The notes under the pieces: model-generated
Told to the model about the DNA's origin: nothing
Seen by the model: the letters and a program-made list of their open reading frames with translations, nothing else
Database searches by the model: none
Position numbers and translations under genes: made by a program
In this document: positions 15,373-63,640 of the stretch, in pieces
How positions within the stretch are numbered: the first letter of the stretch is position 1
Layout: the number at the start of each line of letters is the position of its first letter
From: Takakia lepidozioides
Taxonomy: Eukaryota; Plantae; Bryophyta
Length of the DNA: 64,000 nucleotides
Direction of reading: 5' to 3'
Assembly: GCA_030704615.1 (NCBI GenBank)
Contig: CM060731.1
Coordinates: forward strand, 82,522,001-82,586,000

Positions 15373-16427
15373 TGTTGCGCGGCTTTTACTCACCCATCCC
15401 TTCGCTATTCGAGGCGGAAACTCCAAGATTGAAGAGTTGGAAATCTCTAAGTACTCAGCCCGCGCAGAACAATTAGTCATGACCTACAGCTAGTGTATCA
15501 TGGGGGTGTTTCCTATTTGTTTCCCTTTTGGTATTCATGTTAACTATCTTACCATTGATAATTAAGTATCAGTTTGCTTTATCAATCTATTGGATTCCAT
15601 CAACTCATCCATTCATTCCACAGCTTCACTCAGATCTCTCTACACAGTGTGATTGTATCGTAAAAGTATCTGATTATGATTTATCAGGTATCAGGCCGAA
15701 GCCATTGTGTCTCTAATCTACTCTACAATATCATTACAGCCTTGCATATATCAAGCATCTACTCATCATCTCTCTATCTTCACTTCCGTTCTTCATCTCT
15801 GCCCGATCCCCTCTCCTCTATCACCAAGAAGTCCTCATCCGAATGATGTCCCTCAATTCCCCGTTTCTCCCTTTATCTTCCTATCCGCGGTTCTAACCGT
15901 TTCCCTCACTAACCATCGTCTGTGAACTAACATGTTCCCTTCGCAGGTGTTGTTCCCCACAGTCGTTCCCTGTCCTACTTTTCGTTCCCTATGATCGTGA
16001 CAGCTGTGTCAAGCTGTGACTGGCTGTGTGAAACTGTGACGGGCTGTGACTGGCTGTGCGACTGTGTTTGGCTGTGTCGGGCTGTGAATGGCTGTGTGGC
16101 TGTGCCGGGCTGTGTCGGCTGTGTCGGCTGTGTCTGCTGTGACGACTGTGACGGCTGTGTTGGCTGTGTCGGCTGTGACGACTGTGACGACTGTGTTGGC
16201 TGTGTCGACTGTGACGGGCTGTGTTGGCTGTGTCGGCTGTGTCTGCTGTGACGACTGTGACGGCTGTGTTGGCTGTGTCGGCTGTGACGACTGTGACGGC
16301 TGTATAACCCCCCTCTACAGTGCGCTGCTGTCACCCCTAAGGCTCTTGTTGGTCTTGGTCTGTGCAAAAATTAAGGGTACCCTACAGATCCCGTATAAGT
16401 GTCTAAGTCCCCGACAGTCCTCTAACA
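15373..16427 (-). repeat. 3' LTR of D3, containing a (CACAGC/GACA)-type short tandem array at ~15998-16303
   Basis: Near-identical to 25190-26272 except for array length. Confidence 0.95.
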
Positions 16428-16458
16428 TTACCCCTTCCCCCCTCAAAAAGCCGTGTCC

Positions 16459-19041: not shown

Positions 19042-19253
19042 ATCAATTATTTCGGTTGAGCTGCATGGATAACTTGTGACCTTGTGACAAGTCGATCAGC
19101 TGGCTGTGGTGGTTGTGATACAGAAGTAACTTCCTCCTCCCTCTCTGAAGGTCCTGCTTCCAGTAATAGCATTCTCTGTGCTGTGTGCCCCTTCCTGACC
19201 ATGAGCTTGGGAAACATTATCATGCGGAATCCGTGAAGCCAGTGGATCCGCCA

Positions 19254-24580: not shown

Positions 24581-24601
24581 GTCCCATGTCTTTCATTTCT
24601 T

Positions 24602-25297
24602 TTAATGTGGCAATAACCAAAACTCTCTTCTGTAATATCTCTCATATATGCCTGGGTTTCTTTCAAGCTTCAATGCACCCTTGGCTATACTTGAAGTCTC
24701 CGTTACCATATAACCATATGGCAAACAAGTCTGAAAAGCTGTTCTTGGTGTGAGTTTGATCCACAAAATATCCTTTGGAATTTAATTCTTTACCAGTACA
24801 AGCTCTTCATGCATATGAGTATAAACATTCACCTTTCTTTCTTCCCAGCCTTCAAACTCTACTCGTTTAATGGATAGCAATGCTATCACATAAACCAATG
24901 TTGGTAACCAACGTGCTCTTCCTCTACAGGCTACCTGATAAATCTTTATCACCCTTTTCTCCAGACCCCATTCTGGATCAGCATCATGCACTCGTTTAAG
25001 AATATTTTCTTTACAACCGTCTGGCAATTCCAAGAACCTTTGAAAGAATCGTTTGGACAATCTTTCTTCCTTCGTTCCACAGGGAATTTGATTCACTTCA
25101 AATTCTTTAATGGTCCAACCACCATGATCCCACCATATGCCTGTCACATCTGGTTGTTCATGTCCCAGGTCCCCAGTATGGTCGCCAAATGTCGCGCGGC
25201 TTTTACTCACCCATCCCTTCGCTATTCGAGGCGGAAACTCCAAGATTGAAGAGTTGGAAATCTCTAAGTACTCAGCCCGCGCAGAACAATCAGTCAT
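24602..25297 (-). pseudogene. Family D extra ORF1 upstream of gag (~230 aa; one internal stop in this copy)
   Basis: Conserved in D1 (11555-12250), D2 (13226-13910) and D3. It starts inside the LTR and reads through the PBS. Confidence 0.75.
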
Positions 25298-26272
25298 GAC
25301 CTACAGCTAGTGTATCATGGGGGTGTTTCCTATTTGTTTCCCTTTTGATATTCATGTTAACTATCTTACCATTGATAATTAAGTATCAGTTTGCTTTATC
25401 AATCTATTGGATTCCATCAACTCATCCATTCATTCCACAGCTTCACTCAGATCTCTCTACACAGTGTGATTGTATCGTAAAAGTATCCGATTATGATTTA
25501 TCAGGTATCAGGCCGAAGCCATTGTGTCTCTAATCTACTCTACAATATCATTACAGCCTTGCATATATCAAGCATCTACTCATCATCTCTCTATCTTCAC
25601 TTCCGTTCTTCATCTCTGCCCGATCCCCTCTCCTCTATCACCAAGAAGTCCTCCTCCGAATGATGTCCCTCAATTCCCCGTTTCTCCCTTTATCTTCCTA
25701 TCCGCGGTTCTAACCGTTTCCCTCACTAACCGTCGTCTGTGAACTAACATGTTCCCTTCGTAGGTGTTGTTCCCCACAGTCGTTCCCTGTCCTACTTTTC
25801 GTTCCCTATGATCGTGACAGCTGTGTCAAGCTGTAACTGGCTGTGTGAAACTGTGACGGGCTGTGACTGGCTGTGCGACTGTGTTTGGTTGTGTCGGGCT
25901 GTGACTGGCTGTGTGGCTGTGCCGGGCTGTGTCGGCTGTGTCGGCTGTGTCTGCTGTGACGACTGTGACGGCTGTGTCGGCTGTGACGACTGTGTTGGCT
26001 GTGTCGACTGTGACGGGCTGTGTTGGCTGTGTCGGCTGTGTCTGCTGTGACGACTGTGACGGCTGTGTGGGCTGTGTCGGCTGTGACGACTGTGTTGGCT
26101 GTGTCGACTGTGACGGGCTGTGTTGGCTGTGTCGGCTGTGACGGCTGTGTAACCCCCCTCTACAGTGCGCTGCTGTCACCCCTAAGGCTCCTGTTGGTCT
26201 TGGTCTGTGCAAAAATTAAGGGTACCCTACAGATCCCGTATAAGTGTCTAAGTCCCCAACAGTCCTCTAACA
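25190..26272 (-). repeat. 5' LTR of D3
   Basis: TGTTAGAGG...GCGCGACA followed by TT and PBS TGGCGACC (tRNA-Arg-like 3' end, by recall). Confidence 0.95.
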
Positions 26273-26277
26273 AAGTG

Positions 26278-28907
26278 AATGTGGGAACTGAAGAGGAACC
26301 GAGGATGGTGAAGGTAGGGGCTGATTTGGAGCCAGAATTCTTTGAGGAAGCTACGAGTTTGTTCATCAAATACAGAGATGTATTTGCTTGGAGCTACGAG
26401 GATCTAAAAGGGATACCACCTGAGATCTGTCAGCATAAGATTGAACTGGAACCAGGGTCAGTACCAATCAAACAGACAAGGTACAGAATGAATCCCAACT
26501 ATGCACAGAAGGTTGGAAAAGATATCAAGAAGTTGGCTGAGGCTAAGTTTATATACCCGATAGAGTATACAACTTGGTTGTCACCCATTGTGATAGTTCC
26601 CAAGAAGAATGGTAAATTGAGAGTTTGTGTGAACTATAAGAAGTTGAATGCTTGCACGAAGAAATATCCTTTCCCTTTGCCATTCACAGAAGCGGTATTG
26701 GACACTGTGGCAGGCCATGAGATGTACTCATTCATGGATGGCTTCAGTGGTTGTAATCAAGTGCAAGTGGCAGAAGAAGACCAGGGAAAGACGGCTTTCA
26801 TCACAGACGAGGGTGCTTATGCATACAAAGTCATGCCTTTTGGACTTTGTAATGCACCAGCAACCTTTCAGAGAGTGATAAGTGAATCTTTTCATGAGTA
26901 TCTGGATGATTTCATGCAGGTGTTCTTGGATGTACAGCTCTAAGAATGAGCACTTGCATAAATTGGAGTTATGTTTGGCCAGATGCAGGATGAGAGGTCA
27001 GGGCCTGAATCCAGAGAAGTGTACTTTCTGTGTGAACTCAGGGGTGCTTTTGGGACACATTGTGTGTAAGAGGGGACTTCTTGTGGATCCCAGGAAGACA
27101 GAGGCCATTAAAGCCTCTCCACCACCAGTAAATGTTAAGAGTCTAAGGAGATTCCTTGGACAAACCAGTTATTACAGAAGATTTGTCAAAAGGTATGCAC
27201 AGATAGCAGCACCATTGAGCAAGCTTCTGAAGAAAGATGCAGTGTTTGCATGGACAGCTGAATGTCAACAGGGTTTTGAGGAACTTACATTGTCAGTAAC
27301 AACTACACCTGTGCTGATTAACCCTCACTGGCATGTAGTATTTCATGTTCACTGTGATGCCTCAGGAGAAGCGTTGGGTGCGGTGTTAGCCCAAAATGTT
27401 ACAGGAAATATAGATTCACTTGTGTACTATGCTAGCAGGTTGATGAACAGTGCTGAAAAGAACTATAGCACAACTGAAAGAGAAGCACTGGCAATGATTT
27501 ATGCAGTTAAGAAATTCAGGCATTACCTATTGGGAAGAAAGTTTATGTTTTATGTGGATCACCAGGCTCTGATATATCTGGTGAACAAACCTTTGATAAG
27601 TGGAAGGATAGCAAGGTGGTTAATAATCTTGCACGAGTTTGAGTTCGAAGTTGTTTACAAGCCTGGCCGTTTGCATCTTGTGGCAGATCATTTGTCACGC
27701 CTAACAACAGGAGAGCCCGCCACAGGAGTAGACGACCAATTACCTGATGCGAGTTTATTTGCAATGGAGGTGCAGGGAAGTGCAGATGAATGGTTAGATT
27801 GGCAGTGGCCAATCAGATACTACCTTACTCATGGTCAGTGTCCACCTAGTTATGGTAAGGAGCAGAGGAAGAGAATTGCTATCAAGGCTTTACCTTATAC
27901 TAAGGTAGGGGGCAGAATGTATAAGCTAGGACCTGATGGAGTACTTAAACGATGCTTGTACCACCATGAAGTAAATAAAGTCTTGAAGGAAGTTCATAAA
28001 GGAGTGGCTGGAGGTCATTTTGGAGAAGAGACTACCAGTAGGAAGATACTACTTGCAGGTTACTGGTGGCCTACTTTGTTCAAAGATGTACACAAGTATT
28101 GTCAGAGTTGTGATGAATGTCAGAGGCTAGGACCTTTGCAGAGATCTGGAAAGATGGCTTTGCATCCTACGATGCCTACTGAACCATTTCAGAAATGGGG
28201 ACTAGACTTTGTTGGACCAATTAACCCACCGGCCAAGAATACACAGAACAAGTACATAATTACAGCCACTGATTATACTACGAAGTGGGTGGAAGCTAAA
28301 GCTCTGAGGGACAACACAGCCAAGTCCACAGCAAGGTTCCTGTATGATAACATACTTACACGATTTGGCTGTCCCTTGGAATTTATCAGTGACCAGGGAA
28401 GTCACTTCATTAATGAGACCATTGAACTATTGACTAAAGAGTTCATGATTGTGCATAGGAAGAGTACAACGTATTACCCATAGGGTAATGGGCAGGCATA
28501 GGCTACCAACAAAATACTATGTACTATCTTGGCTAAGATAGTCAATGCAAACAGAACGGATTGGGATACAAAGCTGCTGACAACTTTGTGGTCATACAGG
28601 ACTTCATATAAAGTCACCACTAAGTATACACCATTCCAATTAGTTTATGGTATGGAAGCTTTACTTCCAGTGGAATTCTTGTTACCTACCATGAGAACTA
28701 AATGGGGAAAGAGAATGGAATTGGAAGATTCAATTACGGTCAGGAAACATGAATTATACCATGTGGAAGAAGTACGTGCTGATGCAGCTAATAACATGAC
28801 CATAATTCAGATGAAGAGGAAGAAACAGTTTGATGACGGCAAATTAAAGACTTTTAAGACGGGAGATTTGGTTCTCTGGTTGTAGAAGAAGGGGAAGATT
28901 AAAGCAT
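26278..28907 (+). pseudogene. pol: D2 pol: RT, RNase H and integrase with frameshift and stops
   Basis: ORFs 26020..26943, 26882..28483 and 28529..28885 are highly similar to D3 pol. Confidence 0.93.
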
Positions 28908-35524: not shown

Positions 35525-35660
35525 CGAAATGTCTGCTGGCAAGGCTTGTTGGTATCCACGAACTGTAGACACTGGCAACAAATCAGGGTATTGTTGTACC
35601 AACTGAGCAACATGGCGCAGTGAGACGCGTCGTGCAGTCTCATCCCTCTCCACATACAGG
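35525..35660 (-). pseudogene. Isolated fragment of the retrotransposon DNMT domain
   Basis: LYVERDETARRVSLRHVAQLVQQYPDLLPVSTVRGYQQALPADIS, nearly identical to 43782-43918. Confidence 0.9.
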
Positions 35661-36834
35661 TCACCACAAGGTCTCCACACCCGGTAAAGTCTATGCCACC
35701 CCCACTAAGACCCACTAAGCTACCACTACCCCTCGTTGAAACACCCCCACCGCAACCTGGTGTGCTGAGCTCCACCTAGTGAGCGCCTTCGCCTCCTTGA
35801 GTGCCTTGGGCACTCAAGGGTGCTTCAGCCCCCGTACCTATGGTGCCACTGCCCCCACACAGGGGCAGCCCCTCTTGTGTCCCGACCCCCTTGCCCTCAA
35901 GGCAAAGGGCCGTGACAACTAGTGCAAAGTGGACAAGGAGGAGATACAAATGGATGAGGATTAGAAGGTGGAGGAGGTGGAGCTGGACTAATACAACTAG
36001 AGCGTACTGGTGATGGATGTGGAATATCATTATGAGGAGGCGCCAGTGCAAGCAGTGGGCTGCAAGCTCGGCGACCAAATAATCGACGGGCATATGGTAA
36101 GCCCCTCGTCTCACGGACCATATCTATGTTAAGCTGAGGGAAAAACAAAGTCACATCCGGCAAAGGATGGTCCACCTCCAACTCAAAAGAACTGTCAACC
36201 ATCTCATCACGTATCTGTGATGTACTGTTTTCGCGCGCTTGGAGGGCATTGACTCGTGGCTGCACGTAATACATGATTCATACAATTAGTTTGTAGATTA
36301 CCCAAATATTTCACCACAACAACTTTCATTCTAATATCAATTACAAGTCATTTTTAAATAAACGAGTATTTACAACAAACGTATGTCCTTATATACTAGC
36401 ACAAATAATGTTACAACCATGGGGTATAGAAGACTCACCCTTGCCACATCGGCAATCCCATGTGTCTCATAGTTCCCTAATGGTAACGAAGAACGAAGCC
36501 ACCCCATAGCGTTAGTACAACAACAGTCTGTCGATGCCCGAGCTTTTAAGGTGGCTGCTTAGAGAAGTGCAACTTTTGTGCATTTGATGATTACATCTTG
36601 TAGCCTAATAAGGAGTCCCTTACCTCAGATTGTTGGTACATCTTCCTATTCTGTGACCCCACTTGCTAAGGCATCCTGCTACCAGCAATGTATCTGGTCA
36701 GTCAACAACCTTGCAGCTGGGATGTCTCCACCAACATTGGCCTTTCAAATTGGAGCCAAGGATACATTGGTAACATATTTAGCATAAGAAGGAGACCGGG
36801 TCTTCATTGAAAGCATTGAAAAAGAGGCACTTAC

Positions 36835-38075: not shown

Positions 38076-38828
38076 CTACGCCCACCAAAAGGAGATATGA
38101 CCACATATTCAAGCTTGCTTGTCAAAGCCAGAGGGATGCTCTGACCTGTGTGGAGTGATCAATTCAGCCATAGGACCTACTTCTTGCAATGAACTAAGGA
38201 TTCATGGGAACCCATGAATTCAGCATTTCATCCTACTTGAAGCGGGAATTGTTGCTATCCGTGCGCGGTGAAGATTTCAGTCTCATTCCATGGCTGAACG
38301 GCTTACAAGGAGGGTAACATCTTGGGGACTGCTGTCGAGGGCCAGTTTTCAGAAGAGTGTATGTCCCCTTGCCTTGTTCAGCATTTCTGATACAAGCAAA
38401 TGGCAGTCATGTCTTCACTATTCTCAAGCCAAGACACGGGTCCTCCATAGTTTAGGATGGTTTCAGCTCTCTACAGTTCTCAAAAGGGGTGAACTTTGAC
38501 ATTAGTCAAGTAGTGACGGAGGAGGAATGCTTATGAAGGAAATCTTCCAGGGTCTAAGCTTGTGGAAATACAAGTCTTGAAGGACCTCAATCAACTGACG
38601 ACTGCTCTATGTTGGGTTTTGGGGGAACTGTCAATAGGTGAACCCATTTCAGCATAAATGAATGCTAATGCGACGGGCAACAGGGGCGCACGCTTCTAAA
38701 ACGCTACAACCCCCAGGCAGCGACCCCAGGGAGTCGCAGCTAAAATGTGATGGGATGTGAAGCCTTAAAACAGGCCTGAAGCATATACTCCTTTCCTCTC
38801 AAGAAGCGAACTTGCACAACAAAGGGGC

Positions 38829-39357
38829 TGTCGTGCGCATACATATCGCTACACAACTACATCGCTGTCCAAACCACACCACACATATATGCACAATAAA
38901 GTAGTCTGCCACAATGATAAACAAAGCTAAAAAGGACATACACTTCCAACACAAGAAATATAAAATCCATCGCTATCACTCATTGAAACTGAAGTCGAGC
39001 CAGGGGCACCCCAAGCTATGGGGACTCCACCCCACAACAACCTGTATCCCTACATAAGCACACTAAAACCTAAACACATGCAGGAGCTCGGTCGCGCAGG
39101 CTCAACTCGAGAGAGATGAGCCACGCGACGCCGCTCTCGTGAAGATAAGGCCATTCAGGTGTCAAACTAAACTTGACACCTGATTTAACACTTGACCTAA
39201 ATCCAAGTGTTAAATACAAATAACTAGCTTTATTCTAGTTGTTTTCACACTGTGCTTATTTAACTTGACAGCTGTCGTGCGCATACATATCGCTACACAA
39301 CTACATCGCTGTCCAAACCACACCACACATATATGCACAATAAAGTAGTCTGCCACA
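38829..39357 (-). repeat. 3' split terminal repeat of element A: A(85)-GC-B(356)-T-A(85)
   Basis: The two A copies are identical. B matches 49954-50310 with one 1-bp indel seen. Confidence 0.96.
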
Positions 39358-39358
39358 A

Positions 39359-39372
39359 TCGCCCCCCTAGCT
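39359..39372 (-). promoter_or_regulatory. Polypurine tract of element A
   Basis: AGCTAGGGGGGCGA on the minus strand, followed by T and TGTGGCAG. The identical motif is at 2112-2125. Confidence 0.85.
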
Positions 39373-39615
39373 GGTGGATAGGTCCCTCTAACTCCAGATA
39401 GCTACAAGATGTAATAGCCACAGCCGTACTAAGTCCCTATCACTGTCCCTATTGTACTCAAACTCTATAGACCAAGAGGCCGGGTACAAGAGTAGCCCCA
39501 TCGTTAGTCGCCGTCTTGCAATCTGTGAACTTGAGCCAGAACCTCGTGTGTTCAAGGTCTCCTGTAGCTGGGCCTTGCGTTGCTTGTTAGCCTTCCATGG
39601 TTGTATCCACTCCCA

Positions 39616-41475
39616 CTATCCAATGCATTGTGGACATAACCAATCCCCATCCGGAACCATCTCAAGAGGTGGAGTCAAGCACCCCATATGCCAACCTCTA
39701 GAGCATCGATCACACACCAGCATGGTGGCTGCCCCTTTAGCAGACCCACACAACATGCACCTCAAACCTGCAGATACCACTGCCAGGTTTGGGTCAATCC
39801 TGCCATCGACATTCGGAAGGTGACATGGCGCACAATTACGCACATGGTCCTTCCAAGTTATGCCATCCCGACCCTCCAAGACCAAGACGCCTGAGGGCAA
39901 GACCTCTCGAACCCTCAAAATAACACGTCCTGCAGTCACATCCAGGGTCGTAGGAGCAGTCTGCTGCAGATAGACATAGTCACCAGGGTTGAATCTCCGA
40001 ACCCCAGGACGATAGCCCCCACCACGTATGGTAGCATACCTCAACGTATCACGGTGTTGTGCAATGGCAAGGTTCTCGAAAGCCATGGGCATGACTCTCT
40101 TGAACAACTCTGCACGCTGCTCACATGCACGTGCCCACACGTCCGGATCGTCAAGGTTAAGAACTGTAGCAGCTTCTCTGCGAATGGATGTAGGCAAATC
40201 CGGCTCTCGGCCAAAGAGAAGAAAGTATGGTGAGAAGGAGGCAAGTGATGCTTGCTTGCTGAACCTGTAGCCCATGGCTAACCAGGGTAACTGAAGGTCC
40301 CAATCTCCTAGGTGTCCCTTCTGCAAGCCATACTTGCGCAAACCCCTCTTTACTGTCTGAACAACTCTCTCTGCCAAGCCATCGGCTTCAGGATGATCCC
40401 GAGAAGTGGTGCGGTGGTCTATCAAGGCCTTGTCACACAAAGCCTGAAACTCCCCCAAGAACTCTCTCCCTTGGTCCGTGAGTACCTCAGCTGGAGCACC
40501 GAATCGGCTAAGCACACAATCCAGGAATGCATACGCAGCTCCCTCACTAGCCTTATCAGGCAATGGAACCAATTCAATCCACTTGGAGAAGTGCTCCACC
40601 ATCACCAACACGTACTTGTTGTGGCGCATGGTCAGTGGCAACGGCCCTGCGAAGTCAAGACTCCACCTGTAGCCCAATCCCATGATCGGAAGAGGGTGCA
40701 ATTGTGGAGTAGGGGCGTTGAATGAAGCACGCACCCTGTCACACACCATGCACCTAGCCACAAATTGTTGCACCTCTGTGTGCATACCACGCCACCAATA
40801 CTGCCCCTGCAGTAGACTATGAGTGCGTCGCACCCCAAAATGCCCCAACTCCTCATGGGCATGCCGCACTAACCGTGCCCGCTGTGTTGGGTGAGGCACA
40901 ATCCTCACTCGACCATCCTCCCACACTCGGAGCAGGTGTGTCCCCTCCCACCTGAACCTCTTGGCTCGTTGTAGGATCCGATCCCTCTCCTTGGCAGTCA
41001 TAGTGGCTGCCGTGTCTCCACTGCGGAGGTAGTCCAACACAACTGAATCCTCATGTATATCTTTGGCGCCACCCTGCTCATTGCTGGCCTCAGGGTCCTC
41101 AGACACTTGATCTACAGTCATCCCTGTTGTAGGTCCAACCTGGCCTTCCGCTGCCAAGATACACAGAAATGCAGATGCATGCCATCCGGGCACCATCTCC
41201 TCGTCCGTCTCACCATGCCACCGAGCTCCAGTGTCATCCTGCTGGCTCGTGCATGGATTGCGACTCAACCCATCTGCATTTCGATTGACCAAACCCGGTC
41301 GATGCACCACCTGAAAGTCATACTCTTGAAGGATGAGTGCCCACCGTGCAAGCTTCCCCGTAAGCTTGTCTGACTCCATCAACCACTTGAGTGGTTGGTG
41401 ATCCGTGACAAGGGTGAAGAGATTGCCGTATAATAGCACCTGAAGTGTGCCACGGCCCACACTGCAGCTAAGCAT
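39616..41475 (-). CDS. pol: Element A RNase H C-terminus, integrase and C-terminal PHD finger
   Basis: HEELGHFG...CMVC zinc domain, LDFAGP, TDQGREF, DGLAER, and C4HC3 PHD CMLC...CDRC...HMGC...WLCPQC (~39622-39760). Confidence 0.96.
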   Translation of the reverse strand: MLSCSVGRGTLQVLLYGNLFTLVTDHQPLKWLMESDKLTGKLARWALILQEYDFQVVHRPGLVNRNADGLSRNPCTSQQDDTGARWHGETDEEMVPGWHASAFLCILAAEGQVGPTTGMTVDQVSEDPEASNEQGGAKDIHEDSVVLDYLRSGDTAATMTAKERDRILQRAKRFRWEGTHLLRVWEDGRVRIVPHPTQRARLVRHAHEELGHFGVRRTHSLLQGQYWWRGMHTEVQQFVARCMVCDRVRASFNAPTPQLHPLPIMGLGYRWSLDFAGPLPLTMRHNKYVLVMVEHFSKWIELVPLPDKASEGAAYAFLDCVLSRFGAPAEVLTDQGREFLGEFQALCDKALIDHRTTSRDHPEADGLAERVVQTVKRGLRKYGLQKGHLGDWDLQLPWLAMGYRFSKQASLASFSPYFLLFGREPDLPTSIRREAATVLNLDDPDVWARACEQRAELFKRVMPMAFENLAIAQHRDTLRYATIRGGGYRPGVRRFNPGDYVYLQQTAPTTLDVTAGRVILRVREVLPSGVLVLEGRDGITWKDHVRNCAPCHLPNVDGRIDPNLAVVSAGLRCMLCGSAKGAATMLVCDRCSRGWHMGCLTPPLEMVPDGDWLCPQCIG

Positions 41476-42749
41476 TCTCCCTCATATGAGCTATACTTAG
41501 ACTCTGCAGCATTGTTCGAGCGGCTAGCATAAGCCACTACGAACTCTCTTCCCTCATCATCCACCTGTGTGAGCACCGCTCCAAGCCCCAGCATGCTCCA
41601 ATCTGTATGCAGCTGAAAAGGACGCCCCCTGATAGGTCGTCTCAAGATGGGCGCCGAGGTCAACCTCGCCTTGAGCTCTTGAAAAGCTTGTTCTTGCTCA
41701 TCTTCCCACTGCCACTCCTGGTCCACCTTGGTCAGCTTGGTTAGAGCCTTTGCAATGGCACTAAATCCCTTAACAAACCGTCTGTAATAGTTTGCTAACC
41801 CCATGAAAGCTCGAACTCGGCTCACATCCGTGGGGCGTGGAACCTGTGCAATGGACTCTACCTTAGTCTGCTGTACCCCCAATCCTCCAGGATATATCAT
41901 GTGACCCAGATACTCAATCTGGTTGTGGAAAAACTTGCACTTGCCCGGATGTAACTTCAATCCGTGCGTCCTCAAGCGCTCAAATACCCCCTGAAGGTGT
42001 CTCTCATGCTCCTCCACCGTAGCACTAAAGATGATGATGTCATCTATGTAGCACCGAGCAAACTCCACCCCTGCTAGAATCCTGTCCATGACTCTTTGAA
42101 ACTCAGCGGGAGCGTTTTTAAGCCCAAATGGTAAGAACCGCCACTGGTATAGGCAATCCTTCCCGTGCTCATTGATCCCCCAGAATGCCGTCTTTTGCTT
42201 ATCCGCCTCCTTGATCGGCAACTGGTGATATCCGGATCGTAAATCCAACGTGCTAAAGACCTTGGAATGCCCAATGGCATCAAAGATCTCCTCTGGTGTT
42301 GGCATGGCATACCTATCGGACTTGGTCTGACGATTTACAGGCCGGTAATCACCGCACATACGTCTCTCCGTCCAATTGCCATAGACATCCTTCTTAGCTG
42401 GCATCACTGTGGCTGAAGCATACTCTCCACCAGAGAGCTCCACCAAACCTGCCTCCCAGAGATCTTGAGTCCTCATCTGAATCAAAGACCTCTCCATGTC
42501 ACTGTATCTATAGGGTCTCCGAAAGATTGGCGTGTCAGTGGCCAACTCAATACGGATCTCTTGACCCTTCAGTGCTCCCAAGTCCTTCAAACTGAAGGCA
42601 AAGCAATTCCTGTAAGCCCTCAGGAACCGCCGTATACGTCGTCTCTCTCCTCCGGTGACAATGGGTCCAATATCAGGCTCCCAATTGTCCTCCGTAACTG
42701 CAACCTTAAGTCCAGTGGGCTTAGAGGTAGAGGACGCGTCCCGTGGTTG
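41379..42749 (-). CDS. pol: Element A reverse transcriptase and RNase H, in frame with the upstream ORF across one TAG
   Basis: LDLRSGYHQ, LPFGLKNAP, YIDD, HTDWS and YEGECLA motifs. Confidence 0.96.
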   Translation of the reverse strand, partial: QPRDASSTSKPTGLKVAVTEDNWEPDIGPIVTGGERRRIRRFLRAYRNCFAFSLKDLGALKGQEIRIELATDTPIFRRPYRYSDMERSLIQMRTQDLWEAGLVELSGGEYASATVMPAKKDVYGNWTERRMCGDYRPVNRQTKSDRYAMPTPEEIFDAIGHSKVFSTLDLRSGYHQLPIKEADKQKTAFWGINEHGKDCLYQWRFLPFGLKNAPAEFQRVMDRILAGVEFARCYIDDIIIFSATVEEHERHLQGVFERLRTHGLKLHPGKCKFFHNQIEYLGHMIYPGGLGVQQTKVESIAQVPRPTDVSRVRAFMGLANYYRRFVKGFSAIAKALTKLTKVDQEWQWEDEQEQAFQELKARLTSAPILRRPIRGRPFQLHTDWSMLGLGAVLTQVDDEGREFVVAYASRSNNAAESKYSSYEGECLAAVWAVAHFRCYYTAISSPLSRITNHSSG

Positions 42750-44717
42750 CTATGCTGCAACCTCTTGAGCAGTACCCCCTTCCTGCTCAGTCAATGACAA
42801 GGCCTCATCCTGCCCCATCATCTCATCATTGAGAACCTCCTCATCCCGAGAAGAATCCCCAACCTCATCCATCACAGCTGCCTTCGCTGCCAACTCCCTC
42901 TGAACCTCGAGCACCTCCCACATGTGCCATGGATGTCTACACCTCGTGGTCCTCACCGGCTCGCCCCCACTCGCTGCCTGTACCGTCTCGGTAGGCAGAG
43001 AGACCATCAAGGGAAGTGCACTCCGCACTCTACGTTGCTCAGCCATAGCCAAGCTGACAATCCAGGTCAAGCAATTGAGATCCATTGCTTGCCCCAACAC
43101 CTGACGACGTGATGCCTCAGAAAGAGAAGGCACCGCCGTGGTCCCAGTGGAAAACCCCATAGCCCGCTCTCGCTCGTCGGCATTAGGCTCCACTAACTGC
43201 TGCAACTGAGCATCCCACAGGAGGCCAGGTCCACCATCCCGAAAAGCATGGGATCCTGGGAAGCTGAGCAGTGTAGGTAATGCTGCTCGTGGTTGACCCA
43301 CCCTGTTGACCACTGCCAAAGGCGAACGGTCATCGTGTCTCACACGTTGAGACTGCCTTCCTGTGTCCAAAATGCCATCCACGGTGAGGTGTGCTGGCCG
43401 CTGCACCCCATCAAATGCACGCTTGAGCAGTGCGGGTGGCATCAAGTTAGTCCACCATAGTCGTGGACGATGAGCCCGTGACCCCACTGCAGCTGCATCC
43501 AGCAACACTGCTGACCCAAGCCACGACCGGACTTGATGCACACTGGCCATCACCCTGGCCCGAGAATCACCCATCAGTGGCACATTCTCCAAGATGTATG
43601 CCGGAGATACAGCCTGATGAAGCTGCAAGTGGCGCAAAATCCGCACCATCTCCCAAAACAGACCCGTCCTCGAGTCTCGCAATCCATTGCCATGCCCGGC
43701 TGATGAATGCCCTTGGCAGGGCCAACCTGCCACTACCAGATCAATGGAGCCAACCCGCTCCAAATCCTGCGCCCCCAGCAACGAAATGTCTGCTGGCAAG
43801 GCCTGCTGATATCCACGAACTGCAGACACCTGCAACAACTCAGGGTGCTGCTGCACCATCTGAGCAACATGGCGCAGTGAGACGCGTCGTGCAGTCTCAT
43901 CCCTCTCCACATACAGGTAACGTCGAACTCGTACACCTGCCTGCAGCACTGCAGCCAATCCAGTGCTGATCCCGCCAAATAAGTCCAGAAGGCATATGCC
44001 TTCATCCGGTCGCTGCCACACAAGAGGTGTGGTGTCCAATGGCGACAACTGAGGTGGCCCTGGTGCAATCACCGCACTCTCCTCCTCTCCTGACGGTACA
44101 AAAGCTTCTACCCAAGCTTGTTGCACCCGTCCATCAGCAGCGTGCTGCAAATCCTTGCTCGTACCCCACAACGGAGTGTGAGCAACCATGGCAGGCAACT
44201 CCGCCGTACCATGCATGTCATCCTGCTCTGCTGGAGGTGGCACATCCTCTGCATGGGCATTGCCTTCCAGCAACTCTCCAGGCCAACTAACTGCAGCTGT
44301 GAAGGCGGCTAGTGTTGGCATCTTGCCCCGCTGAGCAGCTGCAATACCCCCAATGAATGTCACAGGGAGCTGTGCACGGCGACCATCCCCTGACTGCCAT
44401 CCAGGCCTGTAGGATGCTGACTCCTCCCAGAAATCCAGGGTGAAGCCCATGGGGTATAACACTGCCCCACCAACGAGGACATCGTAAGAGACCGCGTCTG
44501 TCACAATGGCCTTGGCTCGCATCACTGAGCCATCTACAGGATGATCCGGCTGCAGTCTAATAGCCAACTGATGCCGTGTCATGCCGCGAGCCTGCTCTGA
44601 TCCTCCCAGAGATGTCTGTATCTGGAAAGGACAAGGCTCCATATCCGCCTCCATGAGGCCCAAACCTGCAATAGCAGCTCTGCCCAACATCAGTGGCTGA
44701 GCTCCTGAGTCCAACAA
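42750..44717 (-). CDS. Element A aspartic protease plus DNMT3-like C5 cytosine methyltransferase (~43050-44000)
   Basis: LLDSGA protease; MTase motifs I LDLFGGISTG, II YVERD, IV AGWPCQGHS, VI LENVP, VIII RAHRPRLWWTN, IX ERERAMGF and X RRQVLGQAM, in unpermuted order. Confidence 0.93.
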   Translation of the reverse strand: MLDSGAQPLMLGRAAIAGLGLMEADMEPCPFQIQTSLGGSEQARGMTRHQLAIRLQPDHPVDGSVMRAKAIVTDAVSYDVLVGGAVLYPMGFTLDFWEESASYRPGWQSGDGRRAQLPVTFIGGIAAAQRGKMPTLAAFTAAVSWPGELLEGNAHAEDVPPPAEQDDMHGTAELPAMVAHTPLWGTSKDLQHAADGRVQQAWVEAFVPSGEEESAVIAPGPPQLSPLDTTPLVWQRPDEGICLLDLFGGISTGLAAVLQAGVRVRRYLYVERDETARRVSLRHVAQMVQQHPELLQVSAVRGYQQALPADISLLGAQDLERVGSIDLVVAGWPCQGHSSAGHGNGLRDSRTGLFWEMVRILRHLQLHQAVSPAYILENVPLMGDSRARVMASVHQVRSWLGSAVLLDAAAVGSRAHRPRLWWTNLMPPALLKRAFDGVQRPAHLTVDGILDTGRQSQRVRHDDRSPLAVVNRVGQPRAALPTLLSFPGSHAFRDGGPGLLWDAQLQQLVEPNADERERAMGFSTGTTAVPSLSEASRRQVLGQAMDLNCLTWIVSLAMAEQRRVRSALPLMVSLPTETVQAASGGEPVRTTRCRHPWHMWEVLEVQRELAAKAAVMDEVGDSSRDEEVLNDEMMGQDEALSLTEQEGGTAQEVAA

Positions 44718-46950
44718 GACCCGCAGTGGCCGGTACTTCTTGCTGCCGGTCCACTCAAAGTGAAAATGCCTCCCTGGTTGTCTAACAAGACAACTCCAGG
44801 TGTCACCATGGCGCGCTCAATGGCTGGCCTAGCTGGCAGCTCCGTCAATCTGGCAGCTGCAGCTTGCCAGGGCGCTGCCGTGGCAGTCTTGACCCTCAAA
44901 TCCGAGGATCCCTCTGCCACTACACCTTCCACTAACTCCGCAGAAGATGAAGTGACCTCCCCACTCTCGCAGAGTGTTGCTGCTAGTCTGAACACTGCAG
45001 CTGGTCTCACTCCCGGCGTCGCAATCATGGTTGCCGAGAACAGTGGGGCTTGACACACAGAGGTGGCTGCCCCCAATAACACACCGGCCGCACTAGCCTT
45101 GGCAGCAGGAGTCAATGCTGCACGTGTAGCTCTCCCCAATGGCATAGTAACCTCCGCCTCGGTAACAGTCGGGCGAGAACTAGGTGCCATGGATGGCGTT
45201 GACACTGTCTCCGCCAAGGTGAATGACTGAGGCAGCCTTGCCTGACGGCTTGCCTCCCCACGTTGTGGATCCAACTCCACCTCTGCACCTCGTGGCTCAG
45301 GAACTCGTGCTGCTCCTCGAGTCACGGCTGCAGCAGACTCCACCTGCTCTAATGGTAGTGCTGCTCCGCACATAAATCCCATGCCTCCCATATCTCCTCC
45401 CTCAGGAGCAGGAGGTGGACCATCCCGCCTGGGAGCCGGTACCGCCTGAGCTATAGCCATGGCAGCGAGCCTCTGCTCTAGCTGCTGAAGCCGGTTGGCC
45501 ATGCCTTGATCAACGCCCTGACCTCCACGTCCTTGGCCATGTTGAGCTTGCCCTTGGCCTGCACCTCGTGCCCGACCACCTCGTCCTCTTTGGGCTGGTC
45601 CACCTCGCCCCCGGCCACCATTGTTCCCTTGGAACTGGCCTGGGCGCAACTCAGGATGCAAGTCATAACACTGGGCATCTCCATGCCCATACTTGCCACA
45701 ATGCCCACACTGCAACTGTGCAGGCTGTGCTTGTGCCGGCCTTCTGCCACTCTCTGGGCAATCTCTCTTGACATGGGGTCCTCCACATGTCCAACATATC
45801 ACCCCTGGTTGCTGTTGGCCTGCAAAAGATGCCACGGGCCTTTGCACCTGAGGCCCCCTGTAAGCTCCATGGAACTTGGGCTGGGCAACCTTGCCCCCCT
45901 GACCACGCTGTTGGGCAGTCCCTTGTGCTTGTGGGCTGACAGCTGTGCCCCGTACAGGCATGTCCTTGCCAAATCCAATTGTAACAACTCGTTCCTCCAC
46001 CATGTTGAGCTCAATCCGCTCAGCCAGCAGAAACACATCTGCTAATGTGGGTTGGGCTGCTTGTAACAGGGTTGCATCTCGCACCCTTCTCTTGAGCTCC
46101 TTGTCCAGAATTCCATACCAAAACTGGATTGCCTGAGCTTCAGTAACCCCTTGGGTCACACTTATCAAGCGCCTCATACGAGTGTACGCCTCTCGCAGGC
46201 TCTCACTGGGTTTGCGCTGGAAGTCTTGCAAACTTCGCAGCTTCTCTGTCCGTACACCTTGGTAGTTCCTTCGCAACTCCTGGAAGAACTCCACCACCGG
46301 GTTGAATCTAGGCACATGGGTTGTAGCTGTGGCAGGAGGAGTAGTAGCACCTTTGAACTGGTACCACCTGCAGAAGTACCAGCACTACCTGCTCCACTAC
46401 TAGTGCTGGCAGTGGGAGCTATTGGTACTGATGCAGCTACTGGTCGCGTCATGCCTCGAGTAATGGAGATGTAGTCAGGTGACCAATACATCCTCCACTC
46501 CTCAATCTCTGCTTCATGTCCTCGCCTGAACTCGTGGTAATCGTCCATAGGCGGGCCTTCCAAATGCTGGAACAGTCCCTTCCACGCCATGAATGGGGTG
46601 AATAGATGTGGATTGCGCATCTGCTGCAAATCACACCAGCTGTCGAACTCCTGGATAAAGTCATCCAACTCGATTGTGCCCACAGCTCCAGAGTACCTAC
46701 GAGGCCCCTTGGTAGCTCCATACATCTCCTCCATGTCGTCCCACAACAATGGCGAATGAAAGTGCACACCTGTTGATGAAGCCTCCGAGCCTGTGTCTGA
46801 CTCTACAGTAATTGAGGGTGGCGGTGAAGGTGGTCTGAACCGAATACCTCGTCTTGTGAACCCACTCTCACTGTTACTGCCTGTAGCCGTACTCCCCTCA
46901 AAACCCTTGGGTAACTCCGTAATGACACTCACAATGTGCACCTCCTCCAC
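44690..46950 (-). CDS. gag: Element A Gag (capsid, two zinc knuckles, RG-rich region); one apparent 1-nt frameshift at ~46350
   Basis: RYSG..ELDDFIQEFDSWCD, FQRKPSESLREAYTR, CWTCGGPHVKRDC and CGKYGHGDAQC. Confidence 0.9.
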
Positions 46951-47469
46951 GTGACACTATAAGGTTCTAGTACTAATCTAATAGTGACACGGGTGGGCAC
47001 CTGTTGCAGTCTAAGGGTCATATCCCAATGGCTCAGGGCACCTGCACCTGCATCCACCGCAAGAACTCCTATGGTTGGCTGGTCATCAACCCAGCCTCAC
47101 CATAGAAGAAACACTGGTGGTCTTGCTGGTCATCACTCCAGCCTCACCACCGACAGCATACTCTAGGATTGACCGGTGATCAAATCCGGCCTAATCCCTA
47201 TGAAAGCAAGCGCCCACACAAAACCAACATGGCGCACAGTCAAGCATGCAGGTGTTGGGGGGGATCCAAACACAAGAAATCAAAACATCAACACCCCCAC
47301 ACCAAAATCCAGCAGCAACGCTGATCCTGCAGAATATCCCAGCCCAAAACCCCGGACTGACTGGCCTCCACCAAGAGAGGCTTTGGCAACTACAAGTATA
47401 AGGTAATGAAAATAGTACAGAGATGGAGGGGAAGAATAGAAGCCCGACCAAGCAAGATCTAATCCTGAT

Positions 47470-48219
47470 CTATGCTATCAACTGCCAGACTTCTCTCAAA
47501 GTGCCTCGCTCTGCATGATGGTAAGGTGTAGGAGGTATATCTATGTCCAGAAACCTGCCACTAACCTTGTCCCAAGCTACAGTAGCTCGCTCTAACCAAC
47601 CCTCCTCCTCTTTCTGCCAGGTAGAGACAAAGCAATACTCCCCTATCTCCCGCTCACTGAACACTAAAGAAAACAAAGGTAGGGTCTGATAGTCTCTCAA
47701 CTCGAAAGCTTTGAGACGGTTGCGGGTGTCCTCATTGCGAATGACTGCATCTCCTTCACGCACAACAAACATGTCATTGCTGATGAACCCCCGCTCATGG
47801 TTGCCCTGTGCAGAGCGTATCCGGCTGCAACCATGTCTGATTGCACAAACTTGTGTAGCTCCTGCTCCTCTGCTCCAGTACACCACGGCCTTGTGACTGA
47901 AAACCTTGGTCCCCGGGGCTGTCTTTGGCTGTGTTCCAAGCCTAGCTTTCACCCACTTTGGTATTTCACCTACAGCTGCAGAACTGCTGGCTCCAACAGA
48001 GTTCTGACTGTCCAAGGCAATATTGAGGCCCTCAATGCCAACTACAGCAGTCTGTTGTCTACTGCTAATGCCTGACTCCCAGTATGCAATCAACTCGTCC
48101 AACTGTTCTCCACTCAAATCAGTCTGAGTTCCTTGGGAAACATAAATCCTGTCCCCTTGTGTGCACAGGCTAAGAGAAGAGACCTGCCCTTCAATTACGT
48201 CCTCATTTCCCCCAGCCAT
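47470..48219 (-). CDS. Extra ORF (249 aa) in the 5' leader of element A, function unknown
   Basis: ATG-started open frame, sense to gag, inside the TSD-bounded element. Confidence 0.55.
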   Translation of the reverse strand: MAGGNEDVIEGQVSSLSLCTQGDRIYVSQGTQTDLSGEQLDELIAYWESGISSRQQTAVVGIEGLNIALDSQNSVGASSSAAVGEIPKWVKARLGTQPKTAPGTKVFSHKAVVYWSRGAGATQVCAIRHGCSRIRSAQGNHERGFISNDMFVVREGDAVIRNEDTRNRLKAFELRDYQTLPLFSLVFSEREIGEYCFVSTWQKEEEGWLERATVAWDKVSGRFLDIDIPPTPYHHAERGTLREVWQLIA

Positions 48220-49941
48220 GCAAGGAGTACATCCACAGATTTGTCTCTCATATAGACCAGCACAGGTTCTAGAGACAGGATTGTGGATCTTTTATGGCCC
48301 ACTCACACTCTAAAAATTCCATAGATTTTTAGCAGAGTCCCAAAAACAGAAACCAGGTCTAGGTAGGTAGATTTCCCCTTTCTGCAGCTATCCCCCCAAA
48401 AACTGAGTCAAACAGAGCCCATATGACAAAGATATGACCAATTAGGCTCTAAATCATTCGAATTAGATCAAAAAGGCTTTTTTTTTTTTTTTTAACACCA
48501 AAACGTTCTCGCCATTAAAAACTGTTCCCATGTTATCTACGGGTTGATCTGTCGGATAAGTGATATCCACACTTGTGCCCTCCGTTCCCTGCAGGTTCCC
48601 GATTTTCCATCTGAACAGCCCGTCTCGAGTTCTCCACACATGGGCGGGTCTTGGGGAATTACGATGAATACAATGGCACGCTGAAGCTCAGCAGCAGGTA
48701 GACAATGTGTCCATTAATGTAAAGAGCCTGGCAGATCGACAGTTTGAAACGATCAATGCTTCATCTCCTGTTATGCCATTCGCATCAGCATGCCGTAGAT
48801 TGTCTGTCAACCAATATCCGAGTTCAATTGTCCAAGCAGAAATCTACTAGAAATCTACCAACCGGCTACTGATTCCATAAATACTGGCAACTCCCATTCT
48901 GGATCTGTACTCAATGGATCAGTATAGAGTGGCTGCCCTTAGGGCGCGCTTCATCCCAACCAGGGTAATCTGCACTGAAGCCGAGATGACACTTGAAGCG
49001 GCTGCTTCCACAATGCTCCCTCTTTGGTGCATTCATCGTGCTAATCTAGCACTGCCCAAACCACGCCACAAACTCTCGTTGGTGCAGGAAATATGGCTGC
49101 CGCATTGCAGGTCTCGGGTCAGGCTCTCCATATCCTAGGCGTGCATATTGCTGCTGATATTGGGGCTGCCTTCAAATTGACTGCCAATAGGCCCGAACCT
49201 TAATTGCGCACTTGCTAGAAAATCTAGCCTGACCCCGTCCATCCATTTGCTTGCTTCCTCGCGATGTGCAGCCAGACAACCTCACATCAACCAGCCCACA
49301 ACCACTCCTTCATGGTGGCTGGACTATAGTCGCACACCGACTTCCCACCCATTGCTAGTAACCATTCCACATGAAAGCCAACGACGGCACAATCTGCCTT
49401 CATGCCAGCCTGTCCCTCCTCGCTGACCAAGAAAACCAACGATAGCCAGCCAACTTCTCAACTCGGCCTTTACTGATTGCACACCCTGATATATGCCATG
49501 AACAACTTCACCAAATCGTTTGTCATCAGTACCGATATACCATTGGGACGACGACTTGTAGACATGAGCCCATCAACCAGTCCAACACCTTGGCTGCTCA
49601 CTATGTGCAGGTCTGAAACCATCAGTCTGCTCAGGAATTACCTATAGCATGGTATTTTTATCTCTGCAGCTGAAGTCGAAGACCACGGTCCACCCACTCG
49701 CGTAACCAGCTGCACCTCCGCTTCTAACCACCAAGACAATGAAGGCTTGCATCCCAGCCTTGCGAGACAACAATAATGCTGATCGTTTCACCATGCTCGG
49801 CTCTCAATCTGCCGCTCAGCCAGTGACCGTTAAAAGGAAGAATACCCATGCACTTTTGTGTTACCGCTTTCAACACACACAAAATCCACAAGTGCTAAAA
49901 ACTAATTAAGCTCACATCTTGCACTCACAGATGCAAGCTCA

Positions 49942-49953
49942 ATCTCTCTCGAG
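49942..49953 (-). promoter_or_regulatory. Non-tRNA (self-priming) primer-binding site of element A
   Basis: CTCGAGAGAGAT abuts the 5' repeat and is perfectly complementary to 50145-50156 inside that repeat. Confidence 0.8.
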
Positions 49954-50310
49954 TGATAAACAAAGCTAAAAAGGACATACACTTCCAACACAAGAAATAT
50001 AAAATCCATCGCTATCACTCATTGAAACTGAAGTCGAGCCAGGGGCACCCCAAGCTATGGGGACTCCACCCCACAACAACCTGTATCCCTACATAAGCAC
50101 ACTAAAACCTAAACACATGCAGGAGCTCGGTCGCGCAGGCTCAACTCGAGAGAGATGAGCCACGCGACCGCCGCTCTCGTGAAGATAAGGCCATTCAGGT
50201 GTCAAACTAAACTTGACACCTGATTTAACACTTGACCTAAATCCAAGTGTTAAATACAAATAACTAGCTTTATTCTAGTTGTTTTCACACTGTGCTTATT
50301 TAACTTGACA
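49954..50310 (-). repeat. 5' terminal repeat (B only) of element A
   Basis: Matches 38915-39270; no A segment lies beside it. Confidence 0.96.
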
Positions 50311-50999
50311 GGGCGAGCGGAAAGAGCAAGCAGTGCGCGAGAGGAGGACCAAACACACGAATCAGACACTAAGCAGCTCTCATCCAAAAACTTGTACACC
50401 CAAATCACATATACAGCAACACCTGAGTACACCGCCCTGACCTTGTGTCAGGGCGCCATCTTTATACAAAAGCCCTAACCTTAGTGGCCCGCCACGTGGC
50501 GAGGCATTATAGGCCCAAGCCCATGGTGCTGCCTTGCAGCCCTGGATCTAACGAAGGGCCAGGATCAAGCCACTAGCCTAAACTAACCCTAACCTAAACA
50601 ACATTGTAACGGATTAACGGCTTTATACACCAAAAAAATATATGATGAATGTGTATCGCCGTTTTGGATGAAACGGGTAAATCTGTGATGAGGAAAGTTT
50701 GGGGCATCACATTTGTGAAGCCTACCCCCCACGAAAAATCCTGAGCTCCGCGAAGTACAAGATAAGAAATAACAAGTAAATGTTTGGGGAGAAAATCACC
50801 CTCCACTGCTGGGTGAAAAACCTACCAAAGGAAAACCTAGCACCTGCAATTTGGGCCGAGGACAAAACCTTTGGCTAGGAAAACCGTGCAGGGAGTACAC
50901 GTGGTGACATATCATAGGTCTACAAAATGCATCAAGAGCTAGAACAAAAGGACAGAGCCGCAAGCTAACACTAATCCGTCGAGGAAGCCAATCTGAAGA

Positions 51000-57567: not shown

Positions 57568-57586
57568 ACCCGGCGCGCCTCCACCA
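57568..57586 (-). promoter_or_regulatory. tRNA PBS of element C (tRNA-Ala-like)
   Basis: TGGTGGAGGCGCGCCGGGT directly follows the 5' repeat. Confidence 0.7.
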
Positions 57587-58046
57587 TAAAACAAGCCTGA
57601 AGCATATACTCCTTTCCTCTCAAGAAGCGAACTTGCACAACAAAGGGGCGAGCGGAAAGAGCAAGCAGTGCACAAGAGGAGGATCAAACACACGGATTAG
57701 ACACTAAGCAGCGCTCATCCAAAAACTTGTACACCCAAATCACATATACAGCAACACCCGAGTACACCGCCCTGACCTTGTGTCAGGGCGCCGTCTTTAT
57801 ACAAAAGCCCTAACCTTAGTGGCCCGCCGCGTGGCGAGGCATTATAGGCCCAAGCCCATGGTGCTGCCTTGCAGCCCTGGATCTAACGAAGGGCCAGGAT
57901 CAAGCCACCAGCCTAAACTAACCCTAACCTAAACATCATTGTAACGGATTAACGGCTTTATACGCCAAAAAAATATACGATGAATGTGTATCGCCGTTTT
58001 GGATGAAACGGGTAAATCTGTGATGAGGAAAGTTTGGGGCATCACA
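57587..58046 (-). repeat. 5' terminal repeat (b only) of element C
   Basis: 460 bp; starts TGTGATG but ends TTTTA, not CA. Confidence 0.93.
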
Positions 58047-62566: not shown

Positions 62567-63640
62567 TCACGTTGTCAATGGGACTTCGACTGCTCTGAAA
62601 ACTAGCTCATGAGTCATCGGGCTCCTCCAGGTAAACTGGATTGCAGCCGTTGTACCGCCCCTATTGATTCGCTGCCCAAGTGCAAACTTGAAAGTAAACC
62701 AGTCCTTCGTGAAAGGTGTTCCTCTCTCTGGCTTTGCAGTCTTGGAGACATTTGCTCTGACTTTTACCCACTCATAAAACACTTGAATGAATGACATGAC
62801 GTAAAAGCCACACTCCCAGCCAAATGATTGCTGGGGCACATCAGGCACGTGGAACTGAAATGCTTGGACAATCTCATGCCACTCTGGTGAGTCCATCGAG
62901 TACCCTAAGCACTCAGCATGAAGCTTCCGAATCCACCCTAGAACAAAGGGACATTTATGCGAGTCCTTGATAGAGTTCAGGTGAGTGTAACAGCCCTTGC
63001 GGAGGTCGATGATACAAACACTCCAGTGCCCCCTGCAATGGTATCAAACAACATGGCGTCATTGCACAATCATGATGGGCAGACTCAGCAGACCGACCAC
63101 TCAGCAGACTCAATCTTCAAACCCAGTCCACTACATAAATACAGAGGTCAACTTAATCGCTCAGAGTCAAGACGACACTGCGAAACCAGACTATGACTCA
63201 GGAGACAGTTTCAACAGACTCGGAAGAGTTCTTACTCGTCCCCAATTGGCACCAAAATGAAATCACACTCTTTCAAGTCATTGCCCAGTCGTTCAGTACT
63301 GAGGCAACCTTTCAAGACCTCCAGAAGGCTTTTACGTTGCCCCACCCCCAATGACTTCAACACCGTCCACATCGACGTTGGAAGAACAACAATAGTGTTG
63401 GTGAACGCAGCCTCAACCGACTTCTCATAGAATCGACACCACAGCTCCAGGAGTCTATCTGTGCACTCCGACTCCTTCTGGAGCGCCTTTATGTCATCCG
63501 GCGACAGTCCGCATTCAAACCGTGGGTCCCCTTCAAAAAACATCAGCATGGAATTACCCGCCTTCACGTGCAGAGCATGTGCTTTGCCAAACCGAGCACC
63601 CATCCTGCACAAAGCAGACCATCCTTCGGGAAGCCTCATG
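62567..63640 (-). pseudogene. Ulp1/C48-like cysteine protease domain, spliced and decayed, probably transposon-borne
   Basis: DFILVPI and VPQQSFGWECGFYVMSF (PQQ...CG catalytic-Cys motif), then DWF. The catalytic His was not located. Confidence 0.65.

Follow-up and report, generated by a model that had tools for sequence, protein, structure and literature searches.

Since 2018 it has been an open question why retrotransposons retain a silencing enzyme, and the hosts concerned are hard to manipulate. A locus of Takakia lepidozioides (Bryophyta), in which a DNMT3-like cytosine methyltransferase (MTase) domain lies within a Gypsy element, raises this question in a land plant. The window, i.e., the whole stretch of DNA analyzed, comprises 64,000 nucleotides (contig CM060731.1, positions 82,522,001 to 82,586,000); coordinates below refer to the window, and all parts of the element lie on its minus strand.

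According to the available text of a previous study, KnitGypsy-Dnmt3 of Klebsormidium nitens has A-coding-B-A-B repeats, and its DNMT is encoded within the Pol ORF (de Mendoza et al., 2018; PMC5890265). In the same text, the Klebsormidium Gypsy enzyme shows no activity in yeast, a result its authors call inconclusive, related enzymes of Symbiodinium methylate CG in yeast, the Klebsormidium methylome is ordinary and plant-like despite DNMT elements, and two earlier reports of fusions between DNMT and reverse transcriptase (RT) are cited (PMC5890265). For the Takakia element we propose, with a probability of about one half, that a Gag–protease–MTase product ends at a likely leaky stop codon, and that the enzyme would be packaged at capsid-level amounts and methylate the element's own cDNA before integration.

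Structure of the Element

The element (38829–50310; 11,482 bp) has TG...CA ends and the layout A1-coding-B1-A2-B2, and is flanked by a 4-bp target-site duplication (50311–50314 on the 5′ side; 38825–38828 on the 3′ side). An uninterrupted paralogue of the insertion target is located at 57584–58046, and contigs in two of four runs join 38824 to 50311 across the empty site. Repeats A1 (49954–50310; 357 bp) and A2 (38915–39270) differ by one single-base gap, and B1 (39273–39358; 86 bp) is identical to B2 (38829–38914), which indicates that the insertion is recent.

The domain order is that of Ty3/Gypsy elements: gag with zinc knuckles (44743–46734; likely start MEEMYG at 46734), an aspartic protease that scores below the Pfam cut-off (44440–44730; E 0.022), RT and RNase H (41433–42749; Pfam), and an integrase with an HHCC zinc domain and a D-D-35-E core (40190–40890; Pfam). 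The TG...CA ends, the short target duplication and a polypurine tract directly before B1 (39359–39372) are likewise Ty3/Gypsy features; in place of two full identical terminal LTRs, the repeats are split and permuted. Membership of DIRS/PAT/Ngaro is excluded, as no recombinase match was found in the six frames scanned and rve, HHCC and the target duplication are present. The element is also not a chromovirus, since the integrase C-terminus has a PHD finger (39619–39760; Pfam), not a chromodomain. This finger is closest to those of CHD4, KDM5 PHD1, PHF21A, BAZ2 and UHRF1, which read H3 tails unmethylated at K4. PHD fingers are already known in retrotransposons (available text of PMC6673714 and PMC9940879). 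An extra stop-to-stop frame of 273 aa upstream of gag (47473–48291) has a high contig depth like that of the family, but no Pfam match and no relative in 80 loci or 350 proteins (Atlas under 0.9).

Three single-base frame breaks occur near 46351, 44742 and 41432, all outside the MTase, and at each of them part of the contigs in four of four runs differ by one base. They represent either assembly errors or private mutations. The earlier note described an apparently intact enzyme inside the element; this stands for the MTase, which is open, has its motifs and is covered by contigs of all four runs with no listed indel, but not for the whole coding region, because of these three breaks. Summed contig depth, which is not a copy number, indicates that the element family is highly repeated. 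The leader (48400–49950) has near single-copy contig depth, unlike the highly repeated remainder, and is perhaps particular to the copy in the window or to its subfamily. CpG in the element is 0.45–0.59 compared with 0.21–0.42 in neighboring Gypsy elements, i.e., depletion is no greater, and the comparison of CpG/CHG depletion is uninformative.

Other parts of the window include further repeats. At 995–5431, a second member of the family, diverged (71–82% identical) and with the same TAG-CAA-CCA, is present in scrambled pieces; its own B-A-B end is at ~2126–2648, where A differs and the junctions are kept. A 140-bp fragment at 35525–35664 is 91% identical to the MTase region 43782–43921. Further Gypsy elements occupy 10800–28500, where arrays built of 9- and 10-nt units and large inverted duplications occur. 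An 878-aa stop-free frame beside a Gypsy pol has no Pfam match (16462–19095). A fragment at 62570–63043 encodes an Ulp1-type protease, a domain that often rides in DNA transposons. No host gene was found among 30 other frames scanned in the window.

The MTase Domain Is DNMT3-Like

The domain (43050–44000) lies between protease and RT, in agreement with the earlier note, as the protease DSG is at 44703–44711 and the RT YIDD at 42039–42050. Its open coding stretch spans 43083–43985 within a stop-free frame of 42753–44816. The motifs are arranged linearly: I (43968–43985), II (43899–43913), IV (43710–43727), VI with ENV (43578–43595), VIII (43452–43472), IX (43152–43175) and X (43083–43109). The PCQ of motif IV, with the catalytic Cys codon TGC at 43716–43718, is exactly where it had been placed. 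The Pfam profile DNA_methylase (PF00145) matches with an E-value of 6.6e-13 and 49.2 bits, the cut-off being 22, and together with motifs I, IV, VI, VIII, IX and X this assigns the domain to the C5 cytosine methyltransferases.

When a profile built from 20 homologues of the domain was compared with PDB profiles, DNMT3A was the top match (E 4e-21), followed by DNMT3B; matches to DRM (1e-8 to 1e-10) and to HhaI and DNMT2 (~1e-6) were weaker, and that to DRM2 was confined to chain residues ~225–350. The predicted structure (mean pLDDT 73) gave DNMT3A, DNMT3B or DNMT3C in all 40 Foldseek matches listed. In a fold comparison with 48,161 representatives, it aligned to DNMT3B with a Z-score of 21.3 (rmsd 3.5; 268 residues aligned), compared with 17.6 for M.MpeI and 14.2 for DNMT1, and residues 2–333 of the model are collinear with DNMT3B chain 563–849. 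The domain is DNMT3-like by best profile and best fold, and the earlier calls of a C5 MTase and of a DNMT3-like order are both borne out. A DRM identity is ruled out, as the permuted order, with VI–X before I–V, is absent. The target-recognition region has a pLDDT below 50 and is variable in sequence among homologues; for these reasons, no sequence context (CG or other) is predicted.

In the 203 stored homologues that span 90% of the domain, the catalytic Cys is kept in 198, the motif VI Glu in all 203 and the motif VIII Arg residues in 199 each. It is probable that the domain is an active C5 methyltransferase. Between families, dN/dS of the MTase is 0.08–0.16 in the seven pairs with estimable dS, three further pairs being saturated. 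These values, a check that the earlier note had proposed, refute neutral evolution and indicate that the MTase is under purifying selection. In the L026–L052 pair, dN/dS is 0.112 for the MTase, 0.088 for the protease and 0.031 for RT, i.e., constraint on the MTase is near that on the protease and looser than that on RT. In four pairs of old copies within one family, the ratio is 0.36–0.74 for the MTase and similarly raised for RT plus RNase H (0.33–0.70), which fits decay after insertion; old copies among the loci carry stop codons within the MTase domain. In the 40 of 75 variant rows listed for the host's own copies, 21 of the 33 MTase variants are synonymous and none touches a listed catalytic residue. 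As a separate observation, Glu-Cys takes the place of Pro-Cys in motif IV of 63 of the 135 more distant homologues, and in 7 of 45 loci.

A Conserved Stop Codon between MTase and RT

The MTase frame ends at TAG (42750–42752), followed by CAA-CCA and then, in phase, by RT; the segment 42744–42752 is a predicted readthrough signal. CAR-YYA is the readthrough signal of TMV (available text of PMC2194720), and the window sequence has the same parts: a stop, CAR-YYA and a downstream frame in phase. The MTase had been described as lying inside the retrotransposon polyprotein; however, this stop separates it from RT, and it is conserved. Among 82 sequences surveyed (80 loci and two window copies), 57 span both sides, and a stop is present at the junction in 52 of these (36 TAG and 16 TAA), although the loci are redundant, with ~40 from one family and some representing the same insertion, and amount to ~7–8 independent families. 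At 45% identity or more, 51 of 51 loci have the stop, compared with one of six below. The 3′ context is CAR-YY in 46 of the 52 stops (CAA-CCC in 36, full CAR-YYA in 10), whereas the background frequency of TAG plus CAR-YY is 209/19,321 (1.1%).

Annotated proteins are consistent with this arrangement. Among 33 Gag–protease–DNMT proteins, 23 end 72–141 aa past the MTase domain, nine are cut within 12 residues and one runs on, and RT–RNase H–integrase–PHD is annotated as separate proteins of ~1031–1056 aa. For the named Marchantia and Calypogeia genes, the stop is deduced from the positions of the protein ends. A contig from a second study is identical to window 42700–43124, including the stop. 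A lesion of this copy alone is ruled out by that contig and by the stop in relatives.

Retroelements need a gag:pol ratio of ~20:1 (available text of PMC2194720). Production of RT–RNase H–integrase–PHD by readthrough of UAG-CAR-YY is probable. As the MTase lies ahead of a conserved, likely leaky stop, its amount would follow that of Gag. The enzyme is joined to RT with no stop in five of the six distant loci, in several Closterium-type proteins and in all chlorophyte-type proteins, suggesting that high enzyme dosage is not required across the whole lineage.

Priming and Integration Ends

A predicted self-primer within A1 (50144–50160) is complementary to bases just past A1, where the predicted binding site (49937–49954) lacks the TGG start of a tRNA-type site; no tRNA gene occurs within the window. 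Across three families, the bases just past A1 pair with A positions ~151–180, differing in sequence but not in position. In a crude control in which the strand was shuffled as read, the observed score was reached by 0–1 of 300 shuffles at seven of ten loci, and three (L002, L018 and L069) failed. Tf1/Tcn1 elements are self-primed (available text of PMC6317226), and self-primed reverse transcription is predicted here as well. As the polypurine tract precedes B1 and the self-pairing site follows A1, the working LTR is likely B-GC-A.

The full A1-coding-B1-A2-B2 layout is found in the window, L045 and L066, with a 4-bp duplication in all three. Identities of B1/B2 and A1/A2 are 100/100, 93/92 and 94/91%; B and A repeats have diverged alike, suggesting that B2 is likely remade every cycle. 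The A2/B2 joint corresponds to the predicted cDNA ends joined exactly. The B1/A2 junction (39269–39274) is CA-GC-TG, a palindrome that joins both end sequences used for integration. It also occurs in the second copy, L001, L045, L052 and L070/L071, with single changes in L020, L026 and L066, and is kept down to ~41% MTase identity. By analogy, a cut of both strands after CA would mimic processed ends, and the foamy-virus integrase cuts a palindromic LTR–LTR junction (available text of PMC1180852).

Among 17 distinct 3′ ends, leaving out L008 (cut off) and L035/L036 (rearranged), ten continue with B-A and seven stop after B, one of the latter (L064) having an exact duplication. None of 17 distinct 5′ ends carries A-B or B upstream. 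A symmetric circle-cutting model is rejected, as it predicts A-B-A-coding-B copies. An end-joined intermediate is likely, although a simple circle does not account for the asymmetry of the ends. L006, L014, L025, L037/L042, L038, L040 and L064 end as A-coding-B without A2-B2; in such copies, the 3′ repeat on which strand transfer depends would be missing. A literature search yielded no description of how integrase acts at split repeats.

Distribution of the Family

Such elements had been regarded as rare. In contrast, the family has 263 cluster representatives (50% identity) at E ≤ 1e-30, with many relatives in the green lineage. Named relatives of the MTase are Marchantia (up to 73% over the whole domain), Calypogeia (72%), Sphagnum, Riccia, Closterium, Chromochloris, Monoraphidium and Scenedesmus, and the integrase adds Klebsormidium and Volvox. 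One of the two earlier fusion reports may cover chlorophytes. The liverwort and moss relatives indicate that the family occurs in land plants; ferns, lycophytes and seed plants are absent among the named relatives found, names being attached to ~1/4 of the entries. In Marchantia polymorpha, a cluster of 18 near-identical Gag–protease–DNMT copies is annotated as hypothetical genes. The search of viral contigs gave 18 pattern matches, none related to the element. Two relatives, P0081 and P0515, are labeled as cyanobacteria-related metagenome bins and are likely mis-binned plant or algal contigs.

Three architectures are found: an MTase followed by a stop, one that precedes RT in the same frame (Closterium type), and one located between RNase H and integrase (35 full proteins, those of Scenedesmus among them). 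Forms with the MTase before RT mostly group together, with support of 95 in the DNMT tree, which contains element enzymes only and comes from a quick midpoint-rooted search without bootstrap, and of 99 in the integrase tree, which has a single long outgroup; P0058 falls outside. The window element belongs to a clade (98 and 95) shared with liverwort and Sphagnum-type entries, whose inner group excludes it; this placement points to a seed-free land plant as the likely host. These trees do not fix the order of events, and elements can move between hosts.

Comparison with Known Elements

The window element resembles KnitGypsy-Dnmt3 in its Gypsy domains, its unpermuted Dnmt3-like domain under purifying selection and its A-coding-B-A-B repeats. 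The Klebsormidium integrases P0406 and P0424 fall in its clade of SH-aLRT 99, in a comparison of integrases alone. This layout and this clade favor kinship with the Klebsormidium type; P0406 and P0424 may or may not belong to DNMT elements, and common descent with KnitGypsy-Dnmt3 itself is a candidate reading. Unlike KnitGypsy-Dnmt3, whose DNMT is reported to share one ORF with RT, the window element has the conserved stop, and its close relatives are in land plants. Self-priming, integrase ends at an internal position and the PHD finger are absent from the available text on KnitGypsy-Dnmt3 (PMC5890265).

SymbioDIRS-Dnmt3 of Symbiodinium is similarly a retroelement that combines split direct repeats with a Dnmt3-like domain (PMC5890265). 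De novo CG methylation has been demonstrated for it; it has a tyrosine recombinase, whereas the window element has a DDE integrase and a 4-bp target duplication. Animal DNMT3A/DNMT3B and bryophyte host DNMT3 have the fold and linear motif order of the window MTase, which is ~21–23% identical to the animal enzymes and has no PWWP or ADD domain. The A1-coding-B1-A2-B2 layout is common to PAT, Ngaro, VIPER and TATE (available text of PMC6681497), but the window element has no recombinase and has TG...CA ends, a polypurine tract and a target duplication. Self-priming, predicted here, is a feature of Tf1/Sushi and Tcn1 chromoviruses (PMC6317226), from which the window element differs in its PHD finger in place of a chromodomain, its split repeats and its methyltransferase. 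MuLV, SIRE1, Tca2 and TMV provide precedents for an in-frame stop, which in the retroelements lies between frames, and for CAR-YY(A) as in TMV (PMC2194720); in MuLV, SIRE1 and Tca2 the stop lies at gag/pol or pol/env, whereas that of the window follows protease and an extra enzyme. In the available literature, including the accessible text of PMC12344493, PMC10952607 and PMC12885004 (subscription papers, theses and repeat databases being outside this scope), no land-plant member or readthrough was found. Relative to the known kind, new features are the conserved stop, likely setting enzyme dosage, and the integrase ends inside a permuted LTR.

A Model and Its Alternatives

In the model that we propose, the conserved stop after Gag–protease–MTase would be leaky, and readthrough would yield RT–RNase H–integrase–PHD. 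The DNMT3-like enzyme would be made and packaged at capsid-level amounts and would methylate new cDNA of the element before integration; that cDNA in or near the particle is the main substrate seems fairly probable. Self-primed reverse transcription would produce cDNA with B-GC-A at both ends. Joining of these ends and opening of the internal CA-GC-TG by integrase, giving A-coding-B-A-B, is slightly favored. The PHD finger would probably steer integration by reading histone H3 tails. The likely gain is that the copy would arrive pre-methylated and pass as ordinary host DNA, or be shielded before integration. A broader picture is tentative and, taken whole, rather doubtful: a land-plant Gypsy lineage with capsid-stoichiometry MTase through a leaky stop and an end-joined intermediate opened at an LTR-internal palindrome, like insertion-sequence circles, in which the MTase may distinguish two identical junctions.

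Instead of cDNA, an active enzyme might have as its chief target the chromatin of the host or the site of integration, either with the pre-integration complex or free in the nucleus. The PHD finger resembles chromatin-reading fingers, Gag-level expression would leave abundant free enzyme, and host-genome effects are raised in the available text of PMC5890265. However, the Pfam scan finds no chromatin-reading domain ahead of the stop, where the MTase lies, selection operates within every lineage of the element and favors a benefit in cis, and the ordinary Klebsormidium methylome (PMC5890265) points the same way, making a chromatin target rather unlikely. The substrate might also be RNA or an RNA:DNA hybrid of the element, or the domain might bind nucleic acid without methylating DNA. 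High-copy packaging together with RNA, the inactivity of the Klebsormidium enzyme on DNA in yeast (PMC5890265) and the lack of extra CpG loss would accord with this; but DNMT3 is nearer than DNMT2 by profile and fold, and Cys, Glu and both Arg are all conserved, so that such a role appears very improbable. That the domain is carried along neutrally, or is a chimera created by assembly, hardly deserves credence: the three frame breaks elsewhere and old copies with stops in the domain could be cited for it, but it is refuted by the between-family dN/dS of ~0.1 and by the same architecture across many loci and genomes, and the four-run coverage of the MTase also stands against it.

Two further alternatives concern the stop and the junction. 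The stop might be real, with RT expressed not through readthrough but through splicing, re-initiation or an internal promoter, in which case the amount of enzyme would again be tied to Gag. In the largest family, an ATG lies in frame two codons past the stop, in the CAA-CCC context, Tca2 has a junction promoter (available text of PMC2194720), and the predicted gene models P0007, P0009 and P0035 skip the stop. That ATG, however, is absent in the window, L003, L057, L026, L028, L052 and L073, while CAR-YY and the RT frame are kept, and we regard such a bypass as unlikely. Lastly, the enzyme might methylate CAGCTG and thereby restrict integrase to the junction next to the priming site, protecting the internal junction, without which a copy could not replicate again. 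CAGCTG contains symmetric CHG sites and is retained in distant relatives, the 5′/3′ asymmetry (0 of 17) requires a cause, and enzyme and split repeats occur together here and in Klebsormidium (PMC5890265). Nevertheless, ~7 distinct copies end as A-coding-B, and cutting at the internal site, or its loss through recombination, may be frequent; the odds of this junction-specific role are low.

Implications

The stop yields a concrete prediction on enzyme dosage, and the arrangement of the repeats suggests that integration takes a route uncommon among Gypsy elements. Detection tools that seek two full LTRs would miss such elements, and bryophyte DNMT3 counts and interpretations of methylomes may be affected by such copies. 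As near-identical copies are present in Marchantia polymorpha, a genetic model with methylation mutants, the question of why a retrotransposon keeps a silencing enzyme becomes directly testable.
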